Part shown: positions 5,746 through 51,099 of the stretch, one piece after another | How the letters are laid out: every line of letters starts with the position of its first letter | How positions within the stretch are numbered: the first letter of the stretch is position 1 | From: Blastocatellia bacterium | GTDB lineage: Bacteria > Acidobacteriota > Blastocatellia > RBC074 | Direction of reading: 5' to 3' | Assembly (NCBI GenBank): GCA_035331565.1 | Contig: DAOLKO010000010.1 | Location: forward strand, 15,682-79,681 | DNA: 64,000 bases | Made by a program: the position numbers and the translations under genes | The notes under the pieces: generated by a model | Database searches by the model: none | What the model saw: only the letters and a program-made list of their open reading frames with translations | What the model was told of the DNA's origin: nothing

Positions 5746-6498
5746 TCATGGCGTCCAACCATAGGCAATGCTGGGATGGGTTTCGGGCACCGGCTGCCAG
5801 TCGCCGCCGAAGTGAATATAGGTCAGGCTTTCGTTTTTGTTTACATCGAGGAATCCGGTTTCGGTGTAGGTTTCCTTTAGCCCAAGCCTAGCAATGATTC
5901 TGTCCTGAAGGGCTTCGGCGTAGGTTTTGCCCGTGATCTTTTCGAGAATCAGCGTTAACAGGAAATAGCCCGAATTGCTGTAGGAATTCTTGGTGTCCGG
6001 TTCAAACTCCGGCGTGCCTTTGGCGGTCAGGGCGAGCATTTCATCTTTCGTGATTCCATTCTTCCAGTTTCTTTGCGGAGCCGAATCGCGCCTGACGTTT
6101 GGAATACCGCTGCGATGCGAGAGCATTTGCAGAACGGTAATTTTCGCGGCGTTCGGAACCTGCGGAAAGAACTTGTCCAGCGTATCCGTCAGCTTCAATT
6201 TCTTTTCCTCGGCGAGCTGCATCACCATCGCGGAGGTGTACATTTTGCCAATCGAAGCGATGCGGAAGCGGCTCGTCGAGGTCAGCGTTTTTTTCGTCGT
6301 TCCCTCAATCTGGGCATAACCGATGGCGCGACTGTAAACCACCTTGCTGTCCTGAGCGATGGTGAGACTTCCCATCGCTTTCTTCTTCTCAGCGAGCCGG
6401 TCAAAAAAACTGGTCGAGTTTGGCTGTATCCAGCGACTGGCCGTAGCCTGCGGTGAAGGACGCCAGCATCAGTATCGTTACGAATGGTATTTTGCTTT

Positions 6499-6502
<4 letters not shown>
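5746..6502 (-). pseudogene. Beta-lactamase-family serine hydrolase (class C/PBP-like fold), disrupted by a frameshift in an A7/T7 homopolymer.
   Basis: ATG at 6502 encodes a signal peptide MKSKIPFVTILMLASFTAGYGQSLDTAKLDQFF followed by TGA. A -1 shift in the A7 run 6403-6409 gives ...DRLAEKKKAMGSLTIAQD... joined to the listed ORF 5746..6375. That ORF has the SxxK motif (ASIGK) and the YxN motif (YSNSG). A further frame change near 5746 is possible. Confidence 0.6.
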
Positions 6503-6753
<251 letters not shown>

Positions 6754-28355: not shown

Positions 28356-29039
28356 TTAACGAGAAGCCGGCACTCGTAAAAGCTGACGAATGGTTGCGCC
28401 GTTTTGGCCGGGGTGGGCTTCGAGCAAACACGCGGCGAAGCCTGTCAGGTGCGCCACAGCGAAGCTGATGCCGTTCAGATTGCGTTCGGGCGGCACGCCG
28501 GGAATCGGGCGCGCATAGCCTGAAGCCAGAAAACATTGTTTGGCTTCATCCCAGCGATACGCTTCGCGCGGACAATCCCAATCCAGCGACACGCCCAACA
28601 CCGACGGCAAACAGCCGGGCAGAGAATCCGCGCCGTTGATGTCGCGCGCGGCGACGACCGGCAAGTTTTCCGCTTGCGCCAACACGCGCTCGAACTTTTC
28701 CCGATGATTCAAATTCAGCGTCCCCAGGCTCAGGTTGACGAGGTGCATTTGATTCGCCGCGCACCATTCCAGCGCGCGCAAGATCGTTTCAATGTTGGTG
28801 GTCAGCGCGCGGTCAAAGACTTTGACGGCGTAAAGCTCTGCGTCCGGCGCTTTTTCGCGGATGGCTCCGGCGACAGCCGTGCCGTGGCCGATGAAATCCA
28901 GATACTGTTCTTCGGTTCCGCCGGGCGTGATGCGCATGCCGCCGGCCACGCCGCCGACGTGCGGATGAACTGGATTGACGCCACTGTCAATGATGGCGAC
29001 GCGGACGCCGCGCCCGGTCAGTGTTGGAGTTGCAGGCAT
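28356..29039 (-). CDS. qhpE: Small subtilisin-like serine protease, candidate QhpE (leader peptidase for the QHNDH gamma subunit).
   Basis: Catalytic triad contexts IIDSGV (Asp), GHGTAVAG (His) and GISFAVAHLTG (Ser) in only 227 aa. It overlaps the ABC exporter gene by 22 nt. Confidence 0.6.
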   Translation of the reverse strand: MPATPTLTGRGVRVAIIDSGVNPVHPHVGGVAGGMRITPGGTEEQYLDFIGHGTAVAGAIREKAPDAELYAVKVFDRALTTNIETILRALEWCAANQMHLVNLSLGTLNLNHREKFERVLAQAENLPVVAARDINGADSLPGCLPSVLGVSLDWDCPREAYRWDEAKQCFLASGYARPIPGVPPERNLNGISFAVAHLTGFAACLLEAHPGQNGATIRQLLRVPASR

Positions 29040-30703
29040 TCGTGGATTTTTCCGTTTTCCAGCGTCAGCACTTGATCGGCGATGGCGGCCAGCGCCGGAC
29101 GATGCGTGATGATGATTGCCGTGCGACCGCGCAGAGATTGCGACAGCGTCGCAGCCAGGCTTTGTTCGGTTGCAGCGTCGAGCGCGGCGCTCGGTTCGTC
29201 CAGCACCAGCACCGCCGGTTCGCGCAACAACGCGCGCGCAATGGCCAGTCGCTGGCGTTCGCCCACGGACAAAGCCAAACCGCGTTCGCCGACTTGCGTG
29301 TCGTAACCTTCCGGCAAAGCGGCGATGAATGCATCAAGCGCGGCGGCTTGCGCGGCGGCGGCGATTTTTTCGGGCGGCACGTCGGGCAAACCGTAAGCGA
29401 TGTTTTCGGCCAGGCCGGCGTTGAAAAGGATCGGCGTTTGATCCACCAGCAAAACGTGGCGGCGCACATCATCCAACCGCAAGTCGCGCAAATCGTGCCC
29501 GTCCAGTTTGACCGCGCCCGCCTGCGGATCGAACAACCGCACCATCAAATCGGCGATGGTGGATTTGCCAGCGCCGCTGCCGCCTGTGATGGCTGTGATG
29601 CTGCCTGCCGCGATGGTGAAACTTATGTCGTCCAGCACAAGGGCTTCGCGGTCGTGGCGAAAGCTGACGCGGTCGAAACGGATTTCACCGCGCGCTTCGT
29701 TGAGCGGCGCGGCGTGCGGACTTTCAACCACGTCTGGCGGAGTGTCGAGCAATTCAAAGACACGCCGCAACGAAACGCGCGCCGTCGTCAGGTTCGTGTA
29801 CAAACTCATCAGGCTTTGCACGGGCGCAAGCAGCCGCTGGTGATAAGCCATAAACGCCACCAGCGCGCCGATGCTGAGCGATCCTTTGATGACCAGCGCG
29901 CCGCCGTACAAAAACACCAGCGCTGTGGAAAGCGTCAGCATTGTGCCGGGCAGCGCGCCTGCCAAATACGAGGTCAGTTGCATCGCCAGCAAGGCATCAA
30001 TAAAGCCGCGATTGCGCGCGCGAAAACGCGCGACTTCGTGCGATTCGGCACGCGAAGTCACAATCAGCCGCATGCCTTGTAAGGATTCGATCAGAAAGCT
30101 GCCGATGTCCGCGCTGCGTTCGCGCAAGGTTTTGACCTGCCCGGTCAAACGTTGCTGGTAATGCCTGAGCGCCAGTACGCTGGGCGGAACCAGCACGATG
30201 CTGAGCAAAAACAAGCGCCAGTTCAGCCAAAGCATGATGGCGACGCTGCCGACGAAAAAGACCACATTAGCCAACACTGCCAGCAAACTGTCAGCGGCGA
30301 CGCGCTGGATTTCGGCGATGTCGTTGTTCAGGCGCGAAACGATGTCGCCCAGTCTGGTGCGCGCATAAAAGCGCGGCGAGAGCGTTTGCAGATGGCGGTA
30401 GAGCGCCAAGCGCATATCGAACAGCACTTCGGCGGAAACGGAGACGTAGCGGTAGCTGGACAGAATGTTCAGCGCAAATCCGAAGACAGTCACGACAACC
30501 ATCAGCGCGGCAACCTGCCACAGCGCGTTGAGATTGCGCCGCAACAAGGCTTCGTCAATCAGGAGTTTGGTGATGTAAGGCTGCGCCAGTCCGAGCAGCG
30601 TCGAGATCAGGCTGATGAACAAAACCAGCGTCAGCCGTTTCCAGTAAGGCGTGAGGTAAGCGAAAGCGCGGCGGTATTCGTTGAGCGAGGCGGGTTGTTT
30701 CAC
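29018..30703 (-). CDS. qhpF: ABC exporter with fused TMD and NBD, candidate QhpF.
   Basis: Six-TM N-terminal domain. Walker A is GGSGAGKST, signature LSVGERQRLAIARAL, Walker B LVLDEPSAALD. Confidence 0.75.
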   Translation of the reverse strand: MKQPASLNEYRRAFAYLTPYWKRLTLVLFISLISTLLGLAQPYITKLLIDEALLRRNLNALWQVAALMVVVTVFGFALNILSSYRYVSVSAEVLFDMRLALYRHLQTLSPRFYARTRLGDIVSRLNNDIAEIQRVAADSLLAVLANVVFFVGSVAIMLWLNWRLFLLSIVLVPPSVLALRHYQQRLTGQVKTLRERSADIGSFLIESLQGMRLIVTSRAESHEVARFRARNRGFIDALLAMQLTSYLAGALPGTMLTLSTALVFLYGGALVIKGSLSIGALVAFMAYHQRLLAPVQSLMSLYTNLTTARVSLRRVFELLDTPPDVVESPHAAPLNEARGEIRFDRVSFRHDREALVLDDISFTIAAGSITAITGGSGAGKSTIADLMVRLFDPQAGAVKLDGHDLRDLRLDDVRRHVLLVDQTPILFNAGLAENIAYGLPDVPPEKIAAAAQAAALDAFIAALPEGYDTQVGERGLALSVGERQRLAIARALLREPAVLVLDEPSAALDAATEQSLAATLSQSLRGRTAIIITHRPALAAIADQVLTLENGKIHECLQLQH

Positions 30704-30706
30704 AAT

Positions 30707-31717
30707 TCAAGCTTGGACTTTGTAATAGCACATAAACCCCGACGCGCAATGTTCGGGCGATTCGCGCAGGGATTTGGCGCGTTCGATGACGTGTAGCTTC
30801 GGAACGCCGTTGCGCGTGCGTTCGACGATGTCGCGCACCATTCGGACGCTCGCCATTTTCTTGAACGGCGCGGCTTCGCGTCCGACGATTTTCAGCGAAG
30901 CCACGCCGATGCGTTGCAAGTCTGGAATGGCGCACAAACCGCACGGGCCGTAAGGTAAACCTTTGGCCGTTGCGCCGCAGCCGTTGCCATTCAAGTACCA
31001 AACCCATTCGCGGTAATCGGTCAGGTTGCGCCGTAGCCAGTTGTGGCGGCGGCTCGTGAAGGTTTTGCCCGCCCATTCAAACCGCGTGTCCATTTCCGAC
31101 AATCCTGTGCAAAACGCGCCGACCGTGTGGTGATGCGTCGTCGAACAAAAGCCTTCTTCAAACGCGCAGCCGTCGTTGAGCATGAAGACTTCGATTTCAA
31201 CTTCGTCGCGGGTGTCGCGCGTGATGGTTTCGATTTCGGCCAGCGTCAGGCTGCGCGGCAGAATGACGCGCCGAACGCCAAAGTTCAGCAGAAAGCGCAC
31301 GGCTTCAGTGTTGAGCGTGGCGGCAACGGAGCTGACGTGCAGGTCGCAGGCGAGTTTGGCTTCGCTCAGCCGCAACAGCAGATTGATGTCGGTGACGATC
31401 AGTGCATCCACGCCGATTTCTTCAGAGAGTTTACGCGCCAGTTCCATCACCAGCGGCATCTGCTCGGCGGTGTAAAACGGGGAGTTGAGCGTGATGAAAA
31501 CTGGAAGCTTGCAGGAGTGCGCGTCATCCACCAGCCGTTTCAAATCGGCGTAAGTTTCCAGACTGCCGCCTTTGGGACTGCGGCGATTGAGCCAGACCGC
31601 GCCGGTGTATTTTTCCATCCACTCGCGCGGGACAATGCCGCAGAACAACTCTTCCGCGCCGGCGGCGGCCAGCATTTCCAGTTCTTCGTGCGCAGCGATG
31701 GGAGCCAGGATTTTCAT
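30707..31717 (-). CDS. U32-family [4Fe-4S] protein, UbiU/RlhA-like. A candidate O2-independent hydroxylase.
   Basis: MKILAPIAAHEELEMLAAAGAEELFCG N-terminus, U32 signature-like EVFMLNDGCAFEEGFCS, and additional Cys at CTGL and CGLC. It lies 3 nt upstream of qhpF. Confidence 0.65.
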   Translation of the reverse strand: MKILAPIAAHEELEMLAAAGAEELFCGIVPREWMEKYTGAVWLNRRSPKGGSLETYADLKRLVDDAHSCKLPVFITLNSPFYTAEQMPLVMELARKLSEEIGVDALIVTDINLLLRLSEAKLACDLHVSSVAATLNTEAVRFLLNFGVRRVILPRSLTLAEIETITRDTRDEVEIEVFMLNDGCAFEEGFCSTTHHHTVGAFCTGLSEMDTRFEWAGKTFTSRRHNWLRRNLTDYREWVWYLNGNGCGATAKGLPYGPCGLCAIPDLQRIGVASLKIVGREAAPFKKMASVRMVRDIVERTRNGVPKLHVIERAKSLRESPEHCASGFMCYYKVQA

Positions 31718-31725
31718 GGCAGGGG

Positions 31726-32358
31726 TTAGTCGAGAATGCCTGCGAGTTTGAGCGTCAGCCCGTCGAACAACAGTTCGCCGGTGATGGTCTTGGGATGATT
31801 GAGTACTTTGGCGCGCGCGCCGGGACGATAAACGTGAGCTTTCTTTTCCAGCGGATCAATCAGCCAGCCGAGTTGCGCGCCGTTTTCCAGATATTCTTCC
31901 ATCTTCTCTTTGAGCATATCGAGATCATCGCTTTCAGAGCGTAACTCGACGACAAAGTCGGGGCAGATGGGCGCAAATTTCTTGCGCAATTTTTTGGGAA
32001 TGGCTTCCCAACGCTCACGCGCGATCCAGGAAAGGTCGGGCGAGCGTTTCGCGCCATTGGGCAGCGTGAACCCCGTGGCGGAATCAAAGCCGACGCCCGT
32101 TCCGTCCGTTTTGGCCCAAATGCCAAACTCGACGGCGAGATTGAAGTTCCGATTCCCGCCTTCACTGCCCGTCGGCATCATGATTATCATTTGCCCCTCC
32201 TTGGTCATCTCGATCCGCAGTTCATTGTTGTTGGCGCAGAACTCGAAGAATTCATCGTCGGTCACTTTTTTGCGAAGCGGCCCAAGGCGAATAACCATTG
32301 TGTCCAAATCAGGCGGAGCGGAGCGCGGAGTAATTTGCGGCGATAGGCGTGTACTCAT
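31726..32358 (-). CDS. Uma2-family (DUF820) PD-(D/E)xK endonuclease-like protein.
   Basis: 210-aa product. The pattern IEMTKEGQMIIMMPTGSEGGNRNFNLAVEFGIW...PDFVVELRSESDD is typical of Uma2. The real start is ATG 32358; the longer listed ORF overlaps the upstream gene. Confidence 0.6.
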   Translation of the reverse strand: MSTRLSPQITPRSAPPDLDTMVIRLGPLRKKVTDDEFFEFCANNNELRIEMTKEGQMIIMMPTGSEGGNRNFNLAVEFGIWAKTDGTGVGFDSATGFTLPNGAKRSPDLSWIARERWEAIPKKLRKKFAPICPDFVVELRSESDDLDMLKEKMEEYLENGAQLGWLIDPLEKKAHVYRPGARAKVLNHPKTITGELLFDGLTLKLAGILD

Positions 32359-32369
32359 AATTGATCCTC

Positions 32370-33296
32370 TCAGATCGCTATCATCGGCAGGCGTGGTTGA
32401 AAAATCAATCTTGCGATTCGGCCTTGCGCGGCTTGTGCCGGCAATGCGCGCAGCATTGGTTCGCTGTGGTGATAAAAATATGAATTGCCTTTCAGATAAA
32501 ACTTCTGGTCGCGATTGCCGAAGGGAGAATTGGTGTACTGGTATTCCAGCAAATGCGTCTGGCATTCGTGACGGCAAGGCGCGCCGGGCTGGAACTTGTC
32601 TGCTTTGTGGTAGTGCAAGCCCGCCGCCATGCAAACGCGGCTGGTGCTGATAAATCCGAACGGCAGGTAAATAGCGATGGCCAGGCCACCCACGTTCAGA
32701 TCGTTGCCTTGCGGCAGATTGTCCATTTCGATCATTTCGACGCCGAACCGCCTGAGCATCATCGCGTAACTGGCGTTGTCCAGGTTGGAGCCTTGCAGCA
32801 CGTTCAAGGCGGAAGCAGGCGCGGGCGCAGCGGCATACATCGTCGTCACGCGCGGGTCGCGCAAGGATTTGTTCAGCAAACGGCCTTGCACGGGGCGCAG
32901 CGTCGGATAGTCCCGGCGCAATAAATTCAGCACGCCCCAATCGTTGAAGACGACTTCATTGCCGGCCTGCTCAGCCAGCGCATCAAACAGGGGGCGCAAA
33001 GCGGTGATGCCTTCATTGCCGACATAAGGCGTCAATAACGTAAAAGCCAGATTGCGCGATTGTGCAGCGGCGAGCGCCTGCCGGAGCGAAGCGGCTGACG
33101 GCAACAGGTGTTCGCAAAATTCGTTTCCGAAAACGCAACCGTCGAAGAAGACTTCGCCGTGATGTTCCTGAATAACTTTTGCGGCGAGTGCGACCAATGG
33201 TTGGATGATGGCACTGGCTTCAAACGTAGCCAATCGGGCGAGGCTGAGTTCGCCTTGCAAATCGTCAGCGCCTTTGATGTGCAATCGCCATTGCAT
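32370..33296 (-). CDS. Second U32-family protein, UbiV-like (one N-terminal and three C-terminal Cys).
   Basis: VFFDGCVFGNEFC ... NDWGVLNLL ... SRVCMAAGLHYHKADKFQPGAPCRHEC parallels the UbiV 4-Cys cluster arrangement. Confidence 0.5.
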   Translation of the reverse strand: MQWRLHIKGADDLQGELSLARLATFEASAIIQPLVALAAKVIQEHHGEVFFDGCVFGNEFCEHLLPSAASLRQALAAAQSRNLAFTLLTPYVGNEGITALRPLFDALAEQAGNEVVFNDWGVLNLLRRDYPTLRPVQGRLLNKSLRDPRVTTMYAAAPAPASALNVLQGSNLDNASYAMMLRRFGVEMIEMDNLPQGNDLNVGGLAIAIYLPFGFISTSRVCMAAGLHYHKADKFQPGAPCRHECQTHLLEYQYTNSPFGNRDQKFYLKGNSYFYHHSEPMLRALPAQAAQGRIARLIFQPRLPMIAI

Positions 33297-33301
33297 ACTT
33301 G

Positions 33302-34423
33302 TTACTGCCGAGGTTTGACGACCAGCAGGTTCGTCGTCATATCGCCGTCAAAGGTGATGACGCGCTGTTGTTTGAAGGTTTGCGCGTCGTAACATTCGAT
33401 GGTCGGGCCTGCGCCGTGGATGTAAAGCTGTTTCCCGTCGCCGGAGAGCGTGAACGAAAACCGCGAGCGACTTTCAAATTCGTGTTTGTTGACCAGTTTG
33501 CGCGCCGCCAGATCGAACACCCAAAACTCCGTGCGCCGCGTCGCGCCGTTGCCGTTGAAGGCCACGGTGTAGCCGGTCTTGCGATCCGGCGAAAGTTGCA
33601 GGCCGGTCATGCCTGTGGTGGCCGGGCCAATCGGCGTGAAATCCAGCTTGCGCGTATTCAGGTCTAACCGCGCGAGGCCGAAAATGCGCCGCCGCACCAC
33701 CGGGTCAGTCGCGTTGAAGACCGAAGTCACTATGCTGGGGTCTTCGTTGGGATCGCCGCCCGCGCCGATCCGCACAGGGAAAATGCCCGGATGCTGCGGT
33801 TTGGACAGTTCAATCTTGTCTATTTGCTTGAACTCTTTGAGGTCGAAAATCAGCACGTCTTCCTTGAACACGTAAAGCAGCTTGCCGTCGGGTGAAACGC
33901 GGTAGCCGGCCTGAAAGCCGAAGGGCGAATCGTATTCTTTGGGAAAGTCGAAAGTCTTGGTGATTTTCTTTTGCGCCAGATCAATCACGGCGAATTTTGG
34001 TTTTTCGATTTCAAAGCGATCAATCTTTTTCACCGCGGCAGTGATCGTGGCGTATAGGAATTGATCGGTCGGGTCGGGCGCAAACCCATTCATACGGACG
34101 ATGCGTTCGCCTTCGTTGAGCGTGAACGAATTGACGACTTTGCGCGTGGCCAAATCAATCACTTCGATGCCGTTGTTCCAGGTGCTGACGTAGATTTTCT
34201 TTTTGTCGTAAGACAGCGTCAGCCCTTGCGGCGTGCCGGTGTTGAGTTGAATCCGGTCAACGACTTTGCCTTGCGCTTCGTCAATCACCAGCACCGTGCG
34301 CTGCCAAACGCCGGTGTAAAGCATCGCGCCCGCCGCCGCTTTTGTTTGCGCGAATGCAGCGGCAGCCAACAGCAGAATGAAAGCAACAGCCAATGTGAAT
34401 CGCATATCGTTTCCCTCGTTCAT
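33302..34423 (-). CDS. qhpB: QHNDH beta subunit (7-bladed beta-propeller), candidate QhpB.
   Basis: Signal peptide, ~350-aa repeat-rich beta-strand protein. Its position in the operon matches qhpB. Confidence 0.6.
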   Translation of the reverse strand: MNEGNDMRFTLAVAFILLLAAAAFAQTKAAAGAMLYTGVWQRTVLVIDEAQGKVVDRIQLNTGTPQGLTLSYDKKKIYVSTWNNGIEVIDLATRKVVNSFTLNEGERIVRMNGFAPDPTDQFLYATITAAVKKIDRFEIEKPKFAVIDLAQKKITKTFDFPKEYDSPFGFQAGYRVSPDGKLLYVFKEDVLIFDLKEFKQIDKIELSKPQHPGIFPVRIGAGGDPNEDPSIVTSVFNATDPVVRRRIFGLARLDLNTRKLDFTPIGPATTGMTGLQLSPDRKTGYTVAFNGNGATRRTEFWVFDLAARKLVNKHEFESRSRFSFTLSGDGKQLYIHGAGPTIECYDAQTFKQQRVITFDGDMTTNLLVVKPRQ

Positions 34424-34441
34424 TTTGGTTGCCTGACAAGC

Positions 34442-34984
34442 TCAGAAGTCAAAACGATAAGCCACCCAATAATCAGAATGGCTTCGACAAAAATCTCTGA
34501 AATACTCAACGCGCGCTATCATCTCTTTTCTCATCACACGCAAATCATCCGGGTGTTCGTGTATTGATTTGAGCATACAATCCACGTGTTCGGATGTGAG
34601 CAAGAGAAAGTCACATTCCTCTTCCCGGAAATACTTGCCGCAAGAAATAGATCCCGGTGGGTCAACTCCTGAAAACACGTGAGCGTGACATCCCCAGTAA
34701 TCAAGATGGACGGTTTCTTCGCCTAAGCAGAAATCCAACGCTAGCTGTTTTTTGAAATCGTTCAGTTTCGTCTCAGCAAGCAATTCCTCAACCGCTTTCG
34801 TTACGGAAGTCCCATTTTGGCTCATCACAAAGACTAATGAACTATGGAGAGTTGCACTAGCTTGATCCTTAGCTTCCAAGACATCAATGTTGTCTTCTAA
34901 AAAGCGCGTGAGCGTTGGCCGATTCATCTTAAGAATTCGGTCAGAAAGCCGCTTGTCGTAAAGTTGTATCCAGTCAGTTCCCAT
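34442..34984 (-). CDS. Low-GC Cys/His-rich 180-aa protein of unknown function, inserted between qhpC and qhpB.
   Basis: The DNA is conspicuously AT-rich relative to its flanks. Motifs include HLDYWGCHAHVF, CGKYFREEECDF and HVDCMLKSIHEHPDD. Confidence 0.5.
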   Translation of the reverse strand: MGTDWIQLYDKRLSDRILKMNRPTLTRFLEDNIDVLEAKDQASATLHSSLVFVMSQNGTSVTKAVEELLAETKLNDFKKQLALDFCLGEETVHLDYWGCHAHVFSGVDPPGSISCGKYFREEECDFLLLTSEHVDCMLKSIHEHPDDLRVMRKEMIARVEYFRDFCRSHSDYWVAYRFDF

Positions 34985-35000
34985 TTCAATTCAATGGGTT

Positions 35001-35345
35001 TCACGGAAAGACTAGATCAATGTTGCGCCAGTCTTTAGTTGCGCTGGCGCACTTGCTCGTCCAGTCGGGATAGTTGTTCAGATGATCCGGCACTTGCGCG
35101 GGCCAGAAACAACTGATGTAGCAGTCATAAAGATCGCGTTCGACAGGCTGGCACAAACCCGCCGTCCCGCCTGTGGAATCCACTTCCCAGCCGGGCGAAA
35201 AGACCAGCGAACAACCCATTGGATAATGCGGGCGAGTTGGCGCGGGCGGGCCGCCTTGTTGCAGCGCAACGATGTCGCCGAATTCAGCGGCCACGTATTC
35301 TTCAATCCGCACTGCTTTGCGGTTGATTGCCCTGATGTGTTTCAT
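35001..35345 (-). CDS. qhpC: QHNDH gamma-subunit precursor (CTQ- and thioether-bearing small subunit), candidate QhpC.
   Basis: 115-aa product. The leader MKHIRAINRKAVRIEEYVAAEF is followed by a Cys/Asp/Glu/Trp-rich core GCSLVFSPGWEVDSTGGTAGLCQPVERDLYDCYISCFWPAQ. Its ATG overlaps the qhpD stop (ATGA). An AAGGAAA RBS is present. Confidence 0.65.
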   Translation of the reverse strand: MKHIRAINRKAVRIEEYVAAEFGDIVALQQGGPPAPTRPHYPMGCSLVFSPGWEVDSTGGTAGLCQPVERDLYDCYISCFWPAQVPDHLNNYPDWTSKCASATKDWRNIDLVFP

Positions 35346-36772
35346 AGCGTTTTCCTTTCGTCGAAGTGAGCCAAAAATTGCGGATTGCGCGTTGCCAGTT
35401 CGCCATAGACGCGCAAACAAACGTCCGTCCAACCGCGAATCCAATCGCAGTAATGCAAATTTGCCTGCCCCGTGTCGCCGTAGCGCACGAAGGCTTCGTG
35501 GTAACAGCCGCCCGAACAAACAGGCCGCGCCCAACAGGTCAGACATTCGGGTTTGCGGTTGATGTGGCCGCGTTCCAGAAAATCCGCTTGTTGCGCACGG
35601 TCAATGCCGGTTTGGATTGTGCCGAGTTTGTGCGCGTCGGCGTCCACGAACCGATGGCAGGGCGCGATGTCGCCCGAAGGGCTGACGCCCAGCAAGCCCA
35701 AGCCCGCGCCGCACGGATGCGCTTTGCTGATGCCCGCGTGCAATTCGGCCAGCGTGTCGCTGACGTTTGAAAAGCCGTGATGTTCATTGCGCAGCGCGCA
35801 TTCCAGATATTCTTCCGCCAGCGCGGTGAACTGTTCCAGAATGCTGTTTAAGCCGTTTGTGCCGATGGCGTAAAGCCGCACAGGCGAAGTCGTGACCGGC
35901 GCGAAACCGACTTCGTGAAAGCCCAGTTCGTCTTTCAAGTGGCGATAGATTTTCTTCACGTCCACGACTTGCGAAGTCAGCGTGACGCGCGCGGCGATGG
36001 GGCGCGTTCGGTGTTTGGCCAGCAAGGCTTTGATCTTCGGCGCGATCATTTCGTAACTGCCTTGCCCGTTGGAAAACACGCGCAACTGGTCGTTCATTTC
36101 CTGCGGCCCGTCAATGCTGATCGTCACGCCGACGTGTTGTTCGGCCAGATATTCGATCACCGGTTCGGTCAGCAAAGTCGCGTTCGTCGTCAGGCTGAAA
36201 TCAATGTATTTGCCCGCCGCGTGAGCCTGTTGCCGGGCGTAATCAATCGTGGCGCGAACGACTTTGAAGTTCATCAAAGTTTCGCCGCCGAAAAAGGTCA
36301 GATGCACTGCACGACGTCCGGGCGATTGCGCCAACAGGAAGTCCACGGCGGCGAAAGCCGTCGCTTCGTCCATGAACTTCGTCTTGCCTTCGGGCATGGC
36401 CAAGCGATCTTCGCCGAATTCGTAGCAGTACTTGCACGAAAGATTGCATTGATTGGTAACGTTGAGTACCAGCGTTTGCAGCGGGAAAGGCATCGGCGCG
36501 GGCTGCACTTCGTCGGCGTAACCGTGGCCGTTGGTGAGGGCGCGCGACTGATACAACTCGGCGACGGTTTCTTCGGCTTCGACGTAATTGAAGCCTTGCG
36601 TGGTTAGATCGGCGACCAAATCCAGGCGTTCGCGTTCGCCCGCGCGCAAGGTTTGGATGACGGCGGACGAAAGTTCATCGAGCGCGAAAATCGCGCCGCT
36701 CGGCACCAGGTAAAGATAGTCTTGCCCGCCGCCGCTGAACTCGTGAAATTCGCCGAGCCGCAATGTCGTCAT
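35342..36772 (-). CDS. qhpD: Radical SAM/SPASM peptide maturase, candidate QhpD (thioether-forming).
   Basis: CNLSCKYC CxxxCxxC motif, C-terminal SPASM cysteines CHRF...CLTCWARPVCSGGCYHE. The start is taken at ATG 36772 (MTTLRLGEF), just after the qhpA stop. Confidence 0.75.
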   Translation of the reverse strand: MTTLRLGEFHEFSGGGQDYLYLVPSGAIFALDELSSAVIQTLRAGERERLDLVADLTTQGFNYVEAEETVAELYQSRALTNGHGYADEVQPAPMPFPLQTLVLNVTNQCNLSCKYCYEFGEDRLAMPEGKTKFMDEATAFAAVDFLLAQSPGRRAVHLTFFGGETLMNFKVVRATIDYARQQAHAAGKYIDFSLTTNATLLTEPVIEYLAEQHVGVTISIDGPQEMNDQLRVFSNGQGSYEMIAPKIKALLAKHRTRPIAARVTLTSQVVDVKKIYRHLKDELGFHEVGFAPVTTSPVRLYAIGTNGLNSILEQFTALAEEYLECALRNEHHGFSNVSDTLAELHAGISKAHPCGAGLGLLGVSPSGDIAPCHRFVDADAHKLGTIQTGIDRAQQADFLERGHINRKPECLTCWARPVCSGGCYHEAFVRYGDTGQANLHYCDWIRGWTDVCLRVYGELATRNPQFLAHFDERKTL

Positions 36773-38550
36773 CGCGCTACCTCCGGTTGATCCCATTTCA
36801 TATAAAGCGGAACTGTGACGACTAAGTAAGACCGCGCCGTTAATGGCTTGGCGTCTTTATCCTGCTGCCTGGTGTCCTGCTGTTTAATGGTCGCCACGAT
36901 CCACAGGTCGCCGTAGTTGTTGCGCGAATGTTTCCGCTGCGGATTGGGGCCTTCAATCGCCGGCGTGAACAATCCCGTCGCGCTCAGCTTGCCGGAATAG
37001 TCTTTGTCGTCGTCGTCGTAAATCGCGGGAAATTCTTCGACCGTCCATTCAGCGTCCATCGCGCCGAGCGGCAAATCGTCAGCCGTTTGCGGTTTGTTGT
37101 CGGGGCCGCGGAAATAGCCTATGGCCTCGAACTGCCAATAGCCTTTGGGGTATTTCACGCCGCCCAACCGCGCCAGGGCGTTATCAGGATTCACTTTGAT
37201 GTAATCCACTTTGTCGTAAATCGTCACCGCGCCGGGCACGAAGGCGCGCCGAACAGCCAAGTCGCGTTTGCCGAGCGGCGCTTTTTCTTCAATGTCCACG
37301 GCGACGGTGAGCGCATCGCGCCCAACGTTGACGATGCGCGTGACTTTGACGCCGGGGCCGAAATCAATGTCTTCGGGTTTCAAGTCCGACGGGAAGTTCG
37401 CGCCGAAGATTTTCACCTGTTCATTGGCGGCGGGCGCTTTGAGCGCGAAACGATCCAAGCCCAGTGCAATCGTTCCGGTGTCAACGCGCCGCAGCGTGAG
37501 ATCAATGCCGAACTCTTCGTAATCGCCCCAGAACCAGCGACCGTCCATTTGCGACTGGTCGCGCGAAACCAGCATGACTTCGCGCATTTCGCGCGGATCG
37601 TCGCCGGGATCGCCGTTGCCGTTTTCGCGCGCGCCGCCTTGCGAACGCCCGCGCCAACTGTAGCCGGTGTAAACCAAACTGCGCCCTGTGCGCGTGAAGG
37701 TCTTGCCGCTTTTGACGAAAGTCAGTTGCGTGCGCGTCGTGAATTCGTCTTCTGCCGCGCCGGGTTCAATCGTCATTTCGCCGTAAACGCGACCTTTGCC
37801 GACTTGATAGCCGCTGACCAGCCAACGCCCGGCAAGTTTGGGCGTGCGCGAATTCGCCCGCCACGCAGCCCATTCCGGCGTGTGCAGCGGAAAGGTTTTG
37901 GCCAAAAACTCCACGGCGCGATCCGCTGGATGGCGCGTGTCTGTTCCCGGCGGCGGAGGTGGCGCATCAGGCGGCGGCGGGAAGCGGCGGAAGCCTTGAA
38001 ATTCGACGACGGGGAAATAGCCAACGTGCATGTTGACCAGCAAATCCCACTCTTCTTTCGAGCGGCGCTGCGACTGCACGCGTCCGTAGGTGTGGCAGAT
38101 CGTGCAGGTGTTACGCAGGTTTTCATCGGGAACGGTTTCGTCAAGCACGCGATGCTCGACTTCATAAAACGCAGGCCGCGCTTCTTCCGGTGCCAAGCCG
38201 TGGTTCGCACTCAGGTAACGGACAATCTGACGCGCTTCCTCCGGCGACAACGTCAGACCGTTCAAGCGAACCATGCGTTTGATGATTTGTTGCCAGCCTT
38301 CGGGTGTAGTGCGCTCCCACGAAATGCGCGTCAGATTGCCTTTGTCATCGGCCTTGTGACAGGTCGAACATTTGGCAATGACAAGTTGGTTGGTGACGGG
38401 AATGCCCTCCTCACCGGGCGGTTTGGCGGGCGGCGCGGCTTGTGGCGTTTGTGCCGGCTGCGTTTGTGATTGTTGAGTTTGGGAATAAACCGTGAAACCT
38501 ACGGGCAGCAGCAACGTGCCCATCAAGACGAACAGCTTGAGCAAGCGCAT
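36769..38550 (-). CDS. qhpA: QHNDH alpha subunit (dihaem cytochrome c N-domain plus beta-sandwich domains), candidate QhpA.
   Basis: Signal peptide and two CxxCH motifs (CSTCH, CTICH) in the first ~170 aa, followed by a ~400-aa beta-rich region. Confidence 0.7.
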   Translation of the reverse strand: MRLLKLFVLMGTLLLPVGFTVYSQTQQSQTQPAQTPQAAPPAKPPGEEGIPVTNQLVIAKCSTCHKADDKGNLTRISWERTTPEGWQQIIKRMVRLNGLTLSPEEARQIVRYLSANHGLAPEEARPAFYEVEHRVLDETVPDENLRNTCTICHTYGRVQSQRRSKEEWDLLVNMHVGYFPVVEFQGFRRFPPPPDAPPPPPGTDTRHPADRAVEFLAKTFPLHTPEWAAWRANSRTPKLAGRWLVSGYQVGKGRVYGEMTIEPGAAEDEFTTRTQLTFVKSGKTFTRTGRSLVYTGYSWRGRSQGGARENGNGDPGDDPREMREVMLVSRDQSQMDGRWFWGDYEEFGIDLTLRRVDTGTIALGLDRFALKAPAANEQVKIFGANFPSDLKPEDIDFGPGVKVTRIVNVGRDALTVAVDIEEKAPLGKRDLAVRRAFVPGAVTIYDKVDYIKVNPDNALARLGGVKYPKGYWQFEAIGYFRGPDNKPQTADDLPLGAMDAEWTVEEFPAIYDDDDKDYSGKLSATGLFTPAIEGPNPQRKHSRNNYGDLWIVATIKQQDTRQQDKDAKPLTARSYLVVTVPLYMKWDQPEVAR

Positions 38551-38937: not shown

Positions 38938-40068
38938 ATGCCAAGACAACGGACTGGTTACGTTTGGTACTGGAAAGAACGCAAATCCTGGTATGCCCGC
39001 CTGACCTTCACGGATGCCAGCGGCAAACGGCGCAATGTCTGCCGCTCCGTCGAAAACAAAACCGAAGGCAACAAACTGCTCAAACAATTGATCCGGGATT
39101 TGGAAGATAACGGCGAGAAAGCGTTGGATTCCGAAAAGCTGACCTTTCGCCAACTCGCCAAGCTTTACTCCGACCGCAAACTTATCGCCGCTGAATATCA
39201 AGGTGACACGAAAGTGCGCGGATTGCGCTCGCATAAAAACCAGCAAGGGTATCTGAAAACACTGGTTGACCATTTCGGCGGGCTGCGCGTGCGCGCCATC
39301 ACGCACAGCGACCTGGAAGATTACCGAGCCAAACGATTGCAAACCATAACCCGACGAGGCGCGCAACTCAGCGCGGCCAGCGTCAACCGGGAATTAAGCC
39401 TGATGCGCGCGGTTTTGAATTTTGCCCGGCGACAAGGCTGGCTCAGCCGAAATCCTTTTGATGCGGGCGATCCGGTTATCAAACCCGCCGACGAAGTGAA
39501 GCGCGAGCGCGTGTTGACGTTTGAAGAAGAAGGGCGGTTGTTACTGGCTTGCGCTGCACCGCGCGAACATTTGCGCCCGATGCTGATTTTCGCGCTTGAT
39601 ACCGGCTTGCGGAAATCCGAAATGCTGGCTTTGCGCTGGGCCGACGTTGACCTTGAATCCGGGATGATTCGCGCGCGTAGCTCGACCACCAAGACGCGCA
39701 AAGCCCGAACTATAGGTATGACTTCGCGCCTGAAAGCCGAGCTTGAGCGAATGCGAGAGTCGGCGGGCGATGATCCTGAATCGCGCATCTTCAACCAGAA
39801 AGACATGAAGCGCTCCTTTGCGACGGCTTGCGAACTGGCCGGTGTTGAAAACCTGCACTGGCACGACCTGCGCCACACCGCGACAACGCGAATGGTTGAA
39901 GTCGGCCTTGCGCCGATGATTGTCATGAAGCTGACCGGCCATACTCAGATGGCAACCTTTGCCCGCTACGTCAACGCCAACGATGAAGCGGCGACCAAAG
40001 GCGCGGAAGCTCTCGACGCTTACCGGCAAAACGCTCTCGGCGAAAGCACGCCGGAGAGAATCAACTGA
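38938..40068 (+). CDS. int: Tyrosine-type site-specific integrase.
   Basis: C-terminal HDLRHTATTRMVEVG...ATFARYVN carries the R-H-R-Y catalytic signature. It is adjacent to the att repeat. Confidence 0.85.
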   Translation: MPRQRTGYVWYWKERKSWYARLTFTDASGKRRNVCRSVENKTEGNKLLKQLIRDLEDNGEKALDSEKLTFRQLAKLYSDRKLIAAEYQGDTKVRGLRSHKNQQGYLKTLVDHFGGLRVRAITHSDLEDYRAKRLQTITRRGAQLSAASVNRELSLMRAVLNFARRQGWLSRNPFDAGDPVIKPADEVKRERVLTFEEEGRLLLACAAPREHLRPMLIFALDTGLRKSEMLALRWADVDLESGMIRARSSTTKTRKARTIGMTSRLKAELERMRESAGDDPESRIFNQKDMKRSFATACELAGVENLHWHDLRHTATTRMVEVGLAPMIVMKLTGHTQMATFARYVNANDEAATKGAEALDAYRQNALGESTPERIN

Positions 40069-40175
40069 AACGGCTTCGGCTCGCCTTACGCCTGATTAGC
40101 TACCCGGCGGACAGCGGTGAAACCTTCGCTCCGTTGGAGAGCCGAAAACACGAAGGACACCTGGAAGGGGAGACA

Positions 40176-41450
40176 ATGCAAAATGAGCAAGAGTTTCGTC
40201 AGATCATAGAAAGGATTGATGAAGTGACGCGGGCGCTTTTGCAAGTAAGGGATTACAAGGCGGAGGCGATTGACCTTAATGGTGCAGACGCTCCTTTGAA
40301 ACTTCTAGCGCGAACTTGGCGGGACACTCAGTTACCAAGTCAGTCTGATGAAAAGCTCGCCAATATGATACGGCAGCGGTTAGAGGAAACATTATCTCCA
40401 ATCTTGTGGATTGCTACGGGACAAATAGTTTCTGGTGCGCTCGAATACGCTACGCGCGAAACTGGGGCAACCGTAATGCCCACCTTTGATGGACTTTCAA
40501 GGGTGGGCATAGCTGAGCAACCATATTCCGAAGATGAAGAAGAGGTTTGGTTGATTGGTTTAGCGGAGAGAATACGAATAAAAGGAACGCTTCAGGTGAG
40601 CCTAAATTGGGGAGAGATTGAATCTATTCTTGATGATTTTTTTGGCTCGTCTCTTTCAGCGTGTAAAACTGAGCAAGAAGCAAAAACGGCTTGGAATAGC
40701 TTTCTCAAGAAGGAGCAAAAGCACCTCAAAAAAAGAATGGGGGATTCACCGGTAGAAAAAATCGTAGAGACCAACCGGAAGGTTGAAATGCTGACGGATA
40801 AACAAAGAGAGCAGATGCGAAGCGATCTGGTAAAACTCGCTTCGCAAAACTTCAAATTAAACATAGATCACGTTATTCGTTGTGCTATTGCGGCCAATCT
40901 GTTCTTGAGCCTGGTGTATTGGGAATACGCTTTTGATCGTGAAAAAGGAAGAGCCGAGAAGGAAGTTCAGCAATCACTGCCCGGAGTAGAAGAACTAAGA
41001 GACATAATAGGTAAGAGATTGAATGACTGGCTTATTCAACCGCTTCCAAAAAGACCGCGCCTAGGTAAACAAGCAAAAGCTGATTTAAGCCAACTGCGCC
41101 AGTTTTACGAGGAAGTTATTGGGGATTGGCGTGATGCCTTTAGCTTCTGTCGTGAGGCTCTCAATTCTCGTTCAGCAACCCGCCGTGCAACTTGGAAAGA
41201 AGACCTCAAAAAATACTATCCCAGTCTGCGAGATTACGACGATTTGATTGAGCGGCTACAGCCCATAGAGAACTGGCCAGAGCAGGTAGCTGCGAAATGT
41301 TCAGAGCAGGGGGGCGAGGATAAGCCTGAAGACATCGCTTACGAACATGCTGCACGACTATGCGACGCAGCCAATTACACGTACAAGCTGTCTTCGCTTA
41401 TTGAGGAATACCGCAAGCAAGGGCGACAAAAAAAAGAAGAAAAAGAATGA
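40176..41450 (+). CDS. Island-encoded hypothetical protein (~425 aa, acidic, AT-richer).
   Basis: ORF with a GGAGA RBS before ATG 40176. No recognisable domain. Confidence 0.45.
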   Translation: MQNEQEFRQIIERIDEVTRALLQVRDYKAEAIDLNGADAPLKLLARTWRDTQLPSQSDEKLANMIRQRLEETLSPILWIATGQIVSGALEYATRETGATVMPTFDGLSRVGIAEQPYSEDEEEVWLIGLAERIRIKGTLQVSLNWGEIESILDDFFGSSLSACKTEQEAKTAWNSFLKKEQKHLKKRMGDSPVEKIVETNRKVEMLTDKQREQMRSDLVKLASQNFKLNIDHVIRCAIAANLFLSLVYWEYAFDREKGRAEKEVQQSLPGVEELRDIIGKRLNDWLIQPLPKRPRLGKQAKADLSQLRQFYEEVIGDWRDAFSFCREALNSRSATRRATWKEDLKKYYPSLRDYDDLIERLQPIENWPEQVAAKCSEQGGEDKPEDIAYEHAARLCDAANYTYKLSSLIEEYRKQGRQKKEEKE

Positions 41451-45493: not shown

Positions 45494-45993
45494 CGACTGC
45501 AAGAAGACTTTCGGCGATGGAGCCGCTGATTGAACCCGAACGAGCATTGCTTCGCCATAACCGGGCAATTCTGCTGTCGGCAATTCCCGAAGTGATGGCC
45601 AAGCTCGGAAAGACCGAAGAAGAGGCGCGGCGGCTTTTGTTGCTACTCTGGTCGCCTGAAGAAGCGGCGCTGGCGGCGGATGATTGGGAAATCAATCCGC
45701 TGGCGCTGGACTTGCTCAAGAAGCTGAATCAGCCCAACGGACGGCAGAAGCTCATCGAATCGGGCTTGCAACGGGGAGCGGATGCGTTTGGCCTGAGTGT
45801 TGAAGATTTGATTTGTCTGGTTTGCCTTGACCCGCGTAACTCTCTGGCGTCCAAGCTGGAACTGGTCAAAATCGCCAACGAACGGAAGATGCCCGCAATC
45901 CTTTTGAAGCTTCACGGCGAAAATCCGGTTGAACGGATAGACCGCCTTGCAGATAGTGTGGCTAATCACGTTGTAGATGACCTGACTGGATGA
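45490..45993 (+). CDS. Island hypothetical protein.
   Basis: ORF coupled to the upstream gene by an ATGA overlap. Confidence 0.35.
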   Translation: MTTARRLSAMEPLIEPERALLRHNRAILLSAIPEVMAKLGKTEEEARRLLLLLWSPEEAALAADDWEINPLALDLLKKLNQPNGRQKLIESGLQRGADAFGLSVEDLICLVCLDPRNSLASKLELVKIANERKMPAILLKLHGENPVERIDRLADSVANHVVDDLTG

Positions 45994-46100
45994 CGAATCG
46001 CCGGGCACGACCAGCCCCGCCAAACTGTAGAATTTTTCTTGCCTCAGCCCGCGATGCGGCATAGACTCCGCGCGTCATCAAACGATGCTCCCCCCGCGTC

Positions 46101-47027
46101 TTGCCAAAGCCCTTAAATAGCTTAGCTATGGAAAACTATAACTATGCGGCTATCCTCCTCGGATTAGCATCCTGTTATTTCTTCCTGTTTCTGGTGCCCT
46201 TTTCAATTTCCTGCATAATTATTTATTGGATTCAACCTCTGTCCCGAAATGCATTTCTGCTCGTCTCGCTCTTACCTTGTTTAGCAGGAACACTATTGAC
46301 GCAGGATTGGAAGTTGGAGGCAGCTATAGTTTTCGCATTGTTCCAATTCAGCATCATAGGTTTCCTGGAATTGTGGATGCTGTTTTTGTTTTTCCGAAAA
46401 TTGATCAAGCCACCAATAACATATATGTCAACACCACCTTTACCAACAACACAATTAAAAGAACCGATTCCGCCAGATTTCGATTTTGAATTTTGGAAGG
46501 ATCGGCTAATTGATCGCACCATCAGAAGCTACCTATCAGACACGCAAAAGCAACAATTGAACGACCTTCGCTTAAGTGATACTCAGCGGGATCAGATTAA
46601 GTACGGCACAAGGCCGCCCCAAGAGATAAATGATTTTTTGGAAGATGCAATAAAAGATGTCGAAGTTGCGGTCACTAACGACGACGGTGAAGCCTTGCGA
46701 AAGGCTATTGAACAAGCTCATCAGAAACTTACAAAATTTGAATCAGAGAGGGTAAAGAGAAGCAACGAGTTCCTTAATAAGCTTACAAATTCGTTTCGCC
46801 GAGCGAATGGTGCTCCTATAGTTTTTGTTGGCTTATTCATAATTGCTTTCGGGTTCTTGTTTTCAAGAGGATATAGCCAATCTATGGGAGTCTTGGGAAG
46901 CTTGCCGCGTATGGTTGTGGACGTCGGCAACCTCAGCATTGCAACCAAATGGGTATTACTTTTTGGGATTGGGCTGTGCCTTTGGGGATTTTACGCGCGT
47001 TTTAGTGATACTCAGAAGAATAACTAA
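46101..47027 (+). CDS. AT-rich integral membrane protein of unknown function.
   Basis: Four N-terminal TM helices, a central charged coiled region, and two C-terminal TM helices. The DNA is strongly AT-rich. Confidence 0.45.
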   Translation: MPKPLNSLAMENYNYAAILLGLASCYFFLFLVPFSISCIIIYWIQPLSRNAFLLVSLLPCLAGTLLTQDWKLEAAIVFALFQFSIIGFLELWMLFLFFRKLIKPPITYMSTPPLPTTQLKEPIPPDFDFEFWKDRLIDRTIRSYLSDTQKQQLNDLRLSDTQRDQIKYGTRPPQEINDFLEDAIKDVEVAVTNDDGEALRKAIEQAHQKLTKFESERVKRSNEFLNKLTNSFRRANGAPIVFVGLFIIAFGFLFSRGYSQSMGVLGSLPRMVVDVGNLSIATKWVLLFGIGLCLWGFYARFSDTQKNN

Positions 47028-47030
47028 AAC

Positions 47031-47849
47031 TTGTTCAGAGGGTTCGCTCTAATGATCAATATGGATACTAAGCAGCTAAAAACTATGTTTTGGAGCTTGG
47101 CATTAGGCGCATGCGGTTTCTGGATTTGGCTTAACCAAGGCGGAAATCCTATGCCTGATTTCTATTTACTAGATGATGCGGTTATTGCCAAAGGGTATAT
47201 TGTTGAAATTACTGAGAGTGCTGGTGAAGAGGGCGACAGTACTTTTACCGCCGAATATCAATTTAAGCTTCCTGACGGTCGAGAGTTAACTAATCGAACA
47301 GACAAGTTTGATGAAGAAATCATCGAACAAAAAATGCCATATCCCATTGAAATTGAATATTACAAAGCTAATCCAGAAATCAACAGGATCAATGGAACTG
47401 GAAGTCGCACATTTACAGAGTGGCTTTGGCGAAGTTTAGGAGGAGGAGTTGTTTTGCTCGCATTATGCTTAAGTCCAAGCATCTGGTTATTCCGATGCGG
47501 TTGGCAGGACATGAGACAAAAACGCGAAATTAAAAGCCGGAAATTGAGAAAAGCTCAGAAGAAAGCGGCCAAGCGACTGGTGAAAGGAGCGGCGGAGGCT
47601 GCGCAGCTAACCTCTATACAGCAGGAAGCCTCACAGATGGCCGATACGCCGACCAACATTCAGATACCGGATCGGGAGCAATTTCCGCCGGGTATTCTGG
47701 GGGATAGTATGTATCGGATGTCTGCTGACCGTGTGCGAAAGTTGTTGGCGAGGGAGGCCAAAAGGGCGGCGAAGGCTACGAAGCCTACGCAACAAGTTAC
47801 TCAAGCGGATGCAGATGAGACAACGTCAAATAACTTCAAAACCAGGTAA
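47031..47849 (+). CDS. AT-rich membrane protein with a DUF3592-like topology (TM, beta-domain, TM, then a Lys/Ala-rich tail).
   Basis: TM1 WSLALGACGFWIW, then a ~100-aa soluble domain, then TM2 LGGGVVLLALCL, then a basic tail. Confidence 0.4.
   Translation: MFRGFALMINMDTKQLKTMFWSLALGACGFWIWLNQGGNPMPDFYLLDDAVIAKGYIVEITESAGEEGDSTFTAEYQFKLPDGRELTNRTDKFDEEIIEQKMPYPIEIEYYKANPEINRINGTGSRTFTEWLWRSLGGGVVLLALCLSPSIWLFRCGWQDMRQKREIKSRKLRKAQKKAAKRLVKGAAEAAQLTSIQQEASQMADTPTNIQIPDREQFPPGILGDSMYRMSADRVRKLLAREAKRAAKATKPTQQVTQADADETTSNNFKTR

Positions 47850-51025: not shown

Positions 51026-51099
<74 letters not shown>

Follow-up and report, generated by a model that had tools for sequence, protein, structure and literature searches.

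Why should an AT-rich gene stand between qhpC and qhpB, the genes for the gamma and beta subunits of quinohemoprotein amine dehydrogenase (QHNDH), in the genome of a Blastocatellia bacterium (Acidobacteriota)? The gene, which we call ORF-X, lies in a 64-kb stretch of contig DAOLKO010000010.1 (assembly GCA_035331565.1; positions 15,682 to 79,681, 64,000 nt, hereafter the window, in whose own coordinates all window positions are given). A sequence-only reading of the window had proposed that it is either an accessory factor for maturation of the gamma subunit or an unrelated selfish insertion. The analyses reported here indicate that ORF-X is probably a horizontally acquired, free-standing gene that occupies the qhpC–qhpB spacer of one Blastocatellia lineage and rides the qhp transcript. 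The gene, its flanks and its two junctions are as follows.

34442–34984, minus strand: ORF-X coding sequence, ATG start, 180 aa, intact; undescribed family, with a predicted acidic, cytosolic alpha/beta product
35001–35345, minus strand: qhpC, QHNDH gamma subunit, the upstream flank (PF08992 E 1.3e-36; NF037958 E 9.7e-40)
33302–34405 or 34423, minus strand: qhpB-like beta-propeller gene, QHNDH beta subunit, the downstream flank (TIGR03907 E 1.2e-20, below cutoff)
34985–35000, minus strand: 5′ junction, from the qhpC stop codon to the ORF-X ATG, a 16-nt spacer AACCCATTGAATTGAA
34406–34441, minus strand: 3′ junction, including the qhpB Shine-Dalgarno sequence GAGGGA

ORF-X is compositionally foreign to the operon that holds it. 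Its GC content is 0.446 and its GC content at third codon positions (GC3) 0.459, against 0.548–0.615 and 0.626–0.735, respectively, in the nine other operon genes, and its codon adaptation to the operon is 0.44, against 0.59–0.73; GC, GC3 and codon adaptation thus all mark it as an outlier in the comparison with the flanks that had been suggested for it. Only five segments of the window fall below 0.48 GC, one of which coincides with the borders of ORF-X. The close homologues of the gene are also AT-rich (GC 0.42–0.45 in hosts of 0.51–0.59). In other respects the 180-aa low-GC frame, wedged between qhpC and qhpB on the strand of the qhp operon, was found exactly as first described: the N-terminus has no hydrophobic stretch, which bears out the stated lack of a signal peptide, and the protein contains 6 Cys and 8 His residues and has an isoelectric point (pI) of 5.2. 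The identical NCBI entry is annotated as ‘hypothetical protein [Blastocatellia bacterium]’. A plus-strand frame at 34061–34567 and another at 34534–34704 were set aside as shadow overlaps of the real gene.

The distribution of ORF-X tells against the maturation-factor proposal. A QhpC scan of one genome per species gave 80 acidobacterial loci (Blastocatellia, Bryobacterales and Terriglobia), against which all ten operon proteins were searched by tblastn; 78 of these loci hold both qhpC and qhpB. The two genes are separated by less than 200 nt in 73 of the 78 (median ~6 nt, by extrapolation from high-scoring segment pairs), an adjacency that had been described as canonical, and ORF-X is found in one species-level locus only (L015, the same record as L003), so that it does not co-occur with qhpA, qhpB, qhpC and qhpD across operon-bearing genomes. 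Close Blastocatellia with the same pair of U32-type genes as the window (L017, L027 and L054) have short, plain qhpC–qhpB spacers. The identical site is occupied only in the window genome and one sister species, where the orthologue (P0001, 93% identical; L001–L004 and L015; 4259–4801 in L001) fills the same slot.

Elsewhere the family keeps other company. A word-index search returned 15 relatives of ORF-X and an exhaustive profile search 99 representatives of clusters at 50% identity (69 of them at E ≤ 1e-10), which makes a family of ~100 clusters, mostly from soil metagenomes, in which every named host is a metagenome-assembled genome of the Acidobacteriota (Blastocatellia). Homologues at 55–66% identity adjoin genes for MacB and Hsp70 in one unrelated neighbourhood, a LytTR response regulator and a GNAT protein in another, and in further contexts an amidohydrolase and WapI, glyoxalases and a major facilitator superfamily transporter, or an integrase fragment and a carotenoid synthase. 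In an intermediate subfamily (31 metagenome loci) the neighbours include DUF58, alpha/beta hydrolase, HipA_C, Vut_1, PanC and MatE genes, with no neighbour family common across the loci. Fifty non-qhp loci of the ORF-X family (272 kb) gave no match to qhpA, qhpB, qhpC, qhpD, the U32 pair, Uma2 or the S8 peptidase, and the suggested recurrence of homologues beside qhpD or U32 genes was therefore not seen in any of them. A new maturation factor is unlikely because of this distribution, in 1 of 78 qhp loci and in 50 other loci with no qhp or U32 genes, and the proposal of a gamma-subunit accessory factor fails as a family function. The homologues do occur in unrelated contexts, which had been named as grounds for giving up a maturation role; phage homologues, the example given, were not found.

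The title of the L015 record (CAZRXE010000873.1) names an ‘uncultured Heliomicrobium sp.’. The qhp operon proteins that it encodes are nevertheless 89–98% identical to those of the window, and all its other relatives belong to the Acidobacteriota; judged by these sequences, the bin is probably mislabelled.

The qhp operon of Blastocatellia is an insertion hotspot, and ORF-X is one of several unrelated small elements that it has admitted while remaining undisrupted: the qhpC–qhpB spacer has been filled repeatedly, by GxxExxY genes and by hairpins, and other spacers of the operon hold Uma2 and Cas4-like genes. Long qhpC–qhpB spacers occur in five loci. Besides ORF-X in L015, a GxxExxY gene (TIGR04256 E 6.5e-38) stands in L016 (6492–6893) and L024 (~735–1133), in spacers of 0.45–0.46 GC and preceded by a palindrome with 32–38-nt arms; a decayed GxxExxY remnant is present in L048 (~6440–6620); and L035 has no clear open reading frame in its spacer. 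The GxxExxY gene is an independent occupation of the ORF-X slot. Imperfect palindromes with 29–43-nt arms, 79–91% complementary, lie in the qhpC–qhpB spacer at the following positions.

L019, 6349–6459: spacer palindrome
L020, 6343–6451: spacer palindrome
L016, 6356–6484: spacer palindrome
L024, 594–729: spacer palindrome
L018, 507–579: spacer palindrome

The palindrome arms of L016 and L024 are built of CACGAAG/CTTCGTG repeats, which resemble the DNA coding for the Phe/Val-rich qhpB signal peptide just downstream; this likeness may be a clue to the targeting or duplication of the spacer.

Two other junctions of the operon have also taken up DNA. An Uma2 gene stands between the two U32 genes in the window, L016, L019, L020, L024 and L048, and is missing from the nearest relative (L001/L015, gap 8 nt) and from L017. 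Uma2 is thus a gain/loss polymorphism and a parallel second insertion in the same operon; its GC3 of 0.66 is host-like, unlike that of ORF-X. The qhpA–qhpD junction carries inserts of 1.2–4.5 kb in L016, L019, L020, L026 and L048, among them 1.6 kb of DNA at 0.43 GC that lacks a clear open reading frame, a 167-aa frame of no known family and a 212-aa Cas4-like PD-(D/E)XK frame (TIGR00372 E 5e-5).

L016, 9060–9662: Uma2 gene
L019, 8710–9297: Uma2 gene
L020, 8702–9289: Uma2 gene
L048, 9345–9860: Uma2 gene
L016, 2963–4570: qhpA–qhpD insert
L019, 3174–3677: qhpA–qhpD insert
L048, 3368–4006: qhpA–qhpD insert
L020 and L026: qhpA–qhpD insert, the gap between the two genes

Like ORF-X, the GxxExxY (TIGR04256) and Uma2 (PF05685) genes are single small genes in intergenic spacers on the operon strand and are polymorphic between sister lineages, GxxExxY in the very same slot (L016 and L024). 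Unlike them, ORF-X matches neither hidden Markov model (HMM) and has no (D/E)xK-type motif, and is therefore probably unable to mobilise itself as a nuclease might. That ORF-X is itself a PD-(D/E)XK nuclease was rejected on the grounds of fold and motif.

With its foreign composition, its presence in 1 of 78 operons, the unrelated contexts of its homologues and the other inserts in its spacer, the proposal of an unrelated selfish or horizontal insertion is the one that the data support. On this account a foreign gene would have landed in the qhpC–qhpB spacer of one Blastocatellia lineage, would be expressed through transcriptional read-through when the qhp operon is active, and would be dispensable for making QHNDH. 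It is nothing unusual for an operon to contain a foreign gene that belongs to no known family; what is new here is the family itself, the coupling of one of its subfamilies to a Bpt-like transferase (described below) and the hotspot behaviour of Blastocatellia qhp spacers. We caution that tight embedding in an operon need not mean a function in its pathway: Blastocatellia qhp operons are littered with small inserts, and annotation through ‘guilt by association’ would therefore mislead. That the same spacers have repeatedly and site-specifically captured different small genes and hairpins is also a natural example of how DNA can enter an operon and not break it.

The sequence-only reading had put the spacers at 17–19 nt on both sides; we measured 16 nt upstream, from the qhpC stop codon (35001–35003), and 18 nt from ORF-X to the first qhpB ATG (34423), but 36 nt to the likelier qhpB start at 34405. 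The latter is probably the true start, and the longest-frame start at 34423 wrong, because the Shine-Dalgarno sequence GAGGGA precedes 34405 and, in the orthologous locus L001, ATA replaces the first ATG. Within the 3′ junction, 11 of 12 positions agree between CTTGTCAGGCAA and CTTGTGAGGCAA, the spacer of the empty site in L017, and the junction is on this resemblance probably a remnant of the native qhpC–qhpB spacer. The orthologous junctions are identical except for a 5-nt tandem duplication (ATTGA) in the window 5′ spacer, which is 11 nt long in L001; the last ~5 nt of the 5′ spacer (TTGAA) are the only upstream stretch in common with homologues in other contexts. No Shine-Dalgarno sequence is present in the 16-nt spacer upstream of ORF-X, a lack common to all homologues examined. 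On the minus strand there is a single promoter-like match, upstream of qhpA (38664–38637). A weak terminator-like hairpin lies within the 3′ end of ORF-X (34484–34459); terminator-like matches in the region are fewer than in shuffled sequences and this hairpin does not exceed the shuffled expectation. It is plausible, we infer, that ORF-X has no promoter of its own and is co-transcribed by read-through of the qhp operon, although the claim that it must be co-transcribed was too strong.

ORF-X is a real gene under purifying selection. In a Nei-Gojobori comparison of the window with the sister species, it differs from its orthologue by 12 nonsynonymous and 15 synonymous changes, at a ratio of nonsynonymous to synonymous rates (dN/dS) of 0.20 (binomial p = 2.6e-4 for purifying selection), compared with 0.02–0.17 for the qhp genes. 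Several observations weigh against the account of ORF-X as a horizontally acquired passenger. Purifying selection and retention in two species show that the product is somehow useful to the host, and the benefit may be one tied to the qhp operon. The dS of ORF-X, 0.146, is under half that of qhpC (0.36) and qhpB (0.32; Fisher p = 0.003). The two lineages may have exchanged the insert at a later time, or the Nei-Gojobori method may be biased where genes differ greatly in GC3. No transposase, terminal inverted repeats or target-site duplication were found in the flanks of ORF-X, no family match was found by tblastn among INPHARED phages and PLSDB plasmids, and none was confirmed in IMG/VR, so that these searches identified no vector. 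The repeats flanking the gene do not go beyond chance-sized matches. Between the two species the dS of the genes that flank ORF-X spans 0.32–0.50.

What the protein might do was approached through its family. Pfam, NCBIfam, PHROGs and PADLOC scans of ORF-X gave nothing significant (the best PHROG match was only at E 0.04), a Pfam scan of 54 aligned family members gave no match, PDB sequence-profile searches with 16- and 54-sequence alignments gave best E values of at least 0.27, and all Foldseek hits to the PDB were at E > 0.5, none of which was taken as homology. The earlier judgement that no family could be assigned by eye therefore extends to profile and structure searches, which found no described family or solved fold. 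AlphaFold2 with the 54-sequence alignment gave a confident model (predicted local distance difference test score, pLDDT, 94.7; predicted template-modelling score, pTM, 0.88; all five models at a pLDDT of at least 93). Its predicted secondary structure comprises a strand at 5–10, a five-helix insert across 11–86, a strand at 87–93 followed by the LDYWG turn, and then a strand at 126–129, two helices and a strand at 172–177; the model points to an alpha/beta protein whose sheet has four strands and whose helical insert is variable. Family members are acidic (median pI 4.7), with acidic residues outnumbering basic ones by a median of 13. A family with a confident predicted fold, no solved relative and no database model is a candidate for a domain-of-unknown-function entry.

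The reading of the clustered Cys/His motifs as suggestive of metal binding is weakened by their pattern of conservation. Across the 54 members conservation reaches 90% only at M1, D4, D95, Y96, L129 and C166; C86 is the consensus residue at its position and is present in most of the family. Close homologues all have C86, C99, H102 and H133, and nearly all have H144, C166 and H169, but C99 is replaced by T, K, Q, R or I and H102 by E or G in other subfamilies, where H133 and H144 are also replaced, and C114, C123 and C136 are not conserved even in close homologues and are specific to the window lineage. No set of three or four Cys/His/Asp ligands at fixed spacing runs through the 54 members. 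Some distant relatives (P0072, 521 aa; P0073, 300 aa; and P0061) contain just the C-terminal half of the family domain, which starts at the LDYWG motif and is joined to a transmembrane segment and to another domain at the C-terminus; their architecture suggests that this half is the conserved core of the family and is able to work when tethered to the membrane.

One distant subfamily (190 aa; 20–25% identical to ORF-X; profile E ~1e-42) has a recurrent neighbour. Its gene always lies directly downstream of a 278–280-aa ATE_C gene, at a gap of 3–13 nt or a 1-nt overlap. The ATE_C protein matches PF04377 (E 1e-14 to 1e-18) and, with scores short of their cutoffs, the NCBIfam models for arginyltransferases; we therefore regard it as a divergent member of the Bpt-like aminoacyl-tRNA-protein transferases. 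In an acidobacterial clade of low GC the two genes stand between pyrB and pyrC, at the following loci.

L095, 5159–6573: ATE_C pair
L097, 5161–6576: ATE_C pair
L098, 3282–4707: ATE_C pair
L099, 5154–6573: ATE_C pair
L133, 3–1066: ATE_C pair
L134, 2–1155: ATE_C pair

A separate branch (P0101, ~40% identical to the others) shows the same coupling. Toxin–antitoxin modules (PhdYeFM/PIN, HicB-like and BrnA) have been inserted after the pair, never between its genes, and ATE_C (47–84% identity) and its partner (37–78%) diverge in step, while pyrC (78–94%) diverges more slowly. These patterns suggest that ATE_C and the distant ORF-X relative form a functional pair. We know of no partner protein of this kind described for Bpt, and the coupling could point to an unrecognised component of bacterial N-terminal aminoacylation. 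Two other candidate neighbours were rejected: a seemingly recurrent amidohydrolase (L008, L010 and the pyrC-linked loci), in which the L008 and L010 proteins proved to be related to pyrC only remotely, at superfamily level (26–42% identity, partial), and a 276-aa GNAT protein of L007 as an ATE_C counterpart, which has no BLASTP similarity to it, neither protein recurring beside other members.

These observations allow the other explanations of ORF-X to be weighed. That it is a functionless relic, a decaying insertion yet to be purged, would accord with the absence of an upstream Shine-Dalgarno sequence, the poor codon adaptation and the lack of a recognisable function; we regard this as extremely improbable, since both species have an uninterrupted reading frame with the dN/dS given above, full-length homologues are kept at 55–66% identity in many hosts and the missing Shine-Dalgarno sequence is a trait of all homologues examined. 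Another reading is that ORF-X was co-opted, in this lineage only, into QHNDH biogenesis, where it would assist QhpC, QhpD or the U32 pair as a chaperone or as a metal or redox partner; the operon would then retain it for the advantage of its being made in stoichiometric amounts with the gamma subunit. Such a role would suit the shared strand, the tight spacing, the lack of an own promoter or strong terminator, the selection on the gene and its occurrence at the same site in two species, as well as the cytosolic nature of the product, which is also that of QhpD and of QhpC before export, and it has a precedent in the qhp maturation enzymes, which act as operon-encoded single-turnover partners (PMC7876137). 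It is nevertheless very improbable: ORF-X is missing from 77 of 78 related qhp operons, including L017, L027 and L054 with the same U32 pair, no family member elsewhere (50 loci) lies near any qhp or U32 gene, the Cys/His motifs that hinted at metal binding are not conserved, and the same spacer holds an unrelated nuclease gene in sister lineages. The canonical accessory genes, namely qhpD (radical SAM), qhpE (S8 peptidase), qhpF (ABC exporter) and qhpG (flavin monooxygenase), co-occur with qhpABC in more than 1300 species (PMC7876137). ORF-X is likewise operon-encoded, cytosolic and presumably co-expressed with QhpC, but differs from them in being confined to 1 of 78 operons and belonging to a family otherwise unlinked to the system.

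The preferred reading, a horizontally acquired free-standing gene, leaves several functions to consider. A stand-alone metal or redox enzyme built on C86, C166 and nearby His/Asp residues, independent of both QHNDH and the Bpt-like transferase, draws on the conservation of C166 (at least 90%) and, for the most part, of C86, on the near-invariant D4, D95 and Y96, on the frequent H133 and H144 and on the LDYWG loop at a strand-to-helix turn of a confident model; since fewer than three of the potential ligands are invariant across the family, C99 (to T, K, Q or R) and H102 (to E or G) change in other subfamilies and no known enzyme fold in the PDB is structurally similar, it is unlikely. It is possible, and we put it forward tentatively, that members of the family serve Bpt-like transferases as protein-binding partners or as modulators; the solo AT-rich copies, ORF-X among them, would then be orphaned mobile derivatives. 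By analogy, and with low confidence, the family may be likened to orphan antitoxin or immunity genes rather than to metal enzymes: orphan type II antitoxins and immunity proteins, and acidic inhibitors or mimics such as DMP12 and the colicin E3 immunity protein, are similarly small, acidic and cytosolic, orphan antitoxin and immunity genes are likewise single, scattered over variable contexts and compositionally foreign, and one ORF-X subfamily is coupled to a larger enzyme gene amid PhdYeFM/PIN, HicB and BrnA modules. The analogy differs from the known systems in that ORF-X has no toxin partner in the window or in ~40 other contexts, has no PADLOC match and is related to genes whose Bpt-like partner is not a known toxin. 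As for the N-degron pathway of Bpt and ATE, the distant subfamily adjoins an ATE_C gene, but the window ORF-X has no adjacent ATE gene. The transferase link is itself weakened by three observations: the clade that carries it is narrow by pyrC identity (at least 78%), so that it may reflect lineage synteny and not family function; a Bpt-like neighbour is absent from ~40 other family contexts; and no ATE_C gene was found in the window or beside close or intermediate homologues. A further step, in which the family is a dedicated Bpt partner (a regulator, an inhibitor or an enzyme that prepares N-termini) and the qhp copy has been co-opted onto a Qhp protein, we consider highly improbable. One candidate target would be QhpC, whose leader is cut by QhpE to expose a new N-terminus, and ORF-X would then add a step, peculiar to this lineage, to how the gamma subunit is made or turned over.

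The rest of the window operon comprises the following genes.

36769–38550, minus strand: qhpA (TIGR03908 E 7e-154)
35342–36796, minus strand: qhpD (TIGR03906 E 2e-177)
32370–33296, minus strand: U32-like protein (no Pfam match)
31726–32331, minus strand: Uma2 gene, PD-(D/E)XK (PF05685 E 4.5e-41)
30707–31717, minus strand: U32 peptidase-family protein (PF01136 E 4.7e-34)
29018–30703, minus strand: ABC exporter (PF00664, PF00005)
28356–29039, minus strand: S8 peptidase (PF00082)

UbiU and UbiV are O2-independent hydroxylases. A U32-type gene pair lies between qhpB and the ABC exporter in 31 of the 80 acidobacterial qhp loci; one of its proteins has a below-cutoff match to UbiU (NF047963 E 2e-25), and Pfam recognises nothing in the other. 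No qhpG was noticed among the genes of the window operon, and a literature search found no paper, among those it covered, that mentions U32 proteins together with QHNDH; the pair might replace the flavin monooxygenase QhpG in the formation of cysteine tryptophylquinone (CTQ). An Rfam scan of the operon found no family.

Upstream of the operon, ~390 nt before qhpA and on the opposite strand, lies a frame that resembles a tyrosine integrase, as judged by translation (38938–40068, plus strand), followed next by a low-GC 438-aa frame of no known function (40134–41450, plus strand). Two other low-GC islands of the window lie at 45801–47800 and 601–2000, the segment 38601–39200 being listed with the integrase-like region, and the sole tRNA gene of the window is an Arg-CCT (51026–51099). 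The qhp operon may thus border a genomic island.

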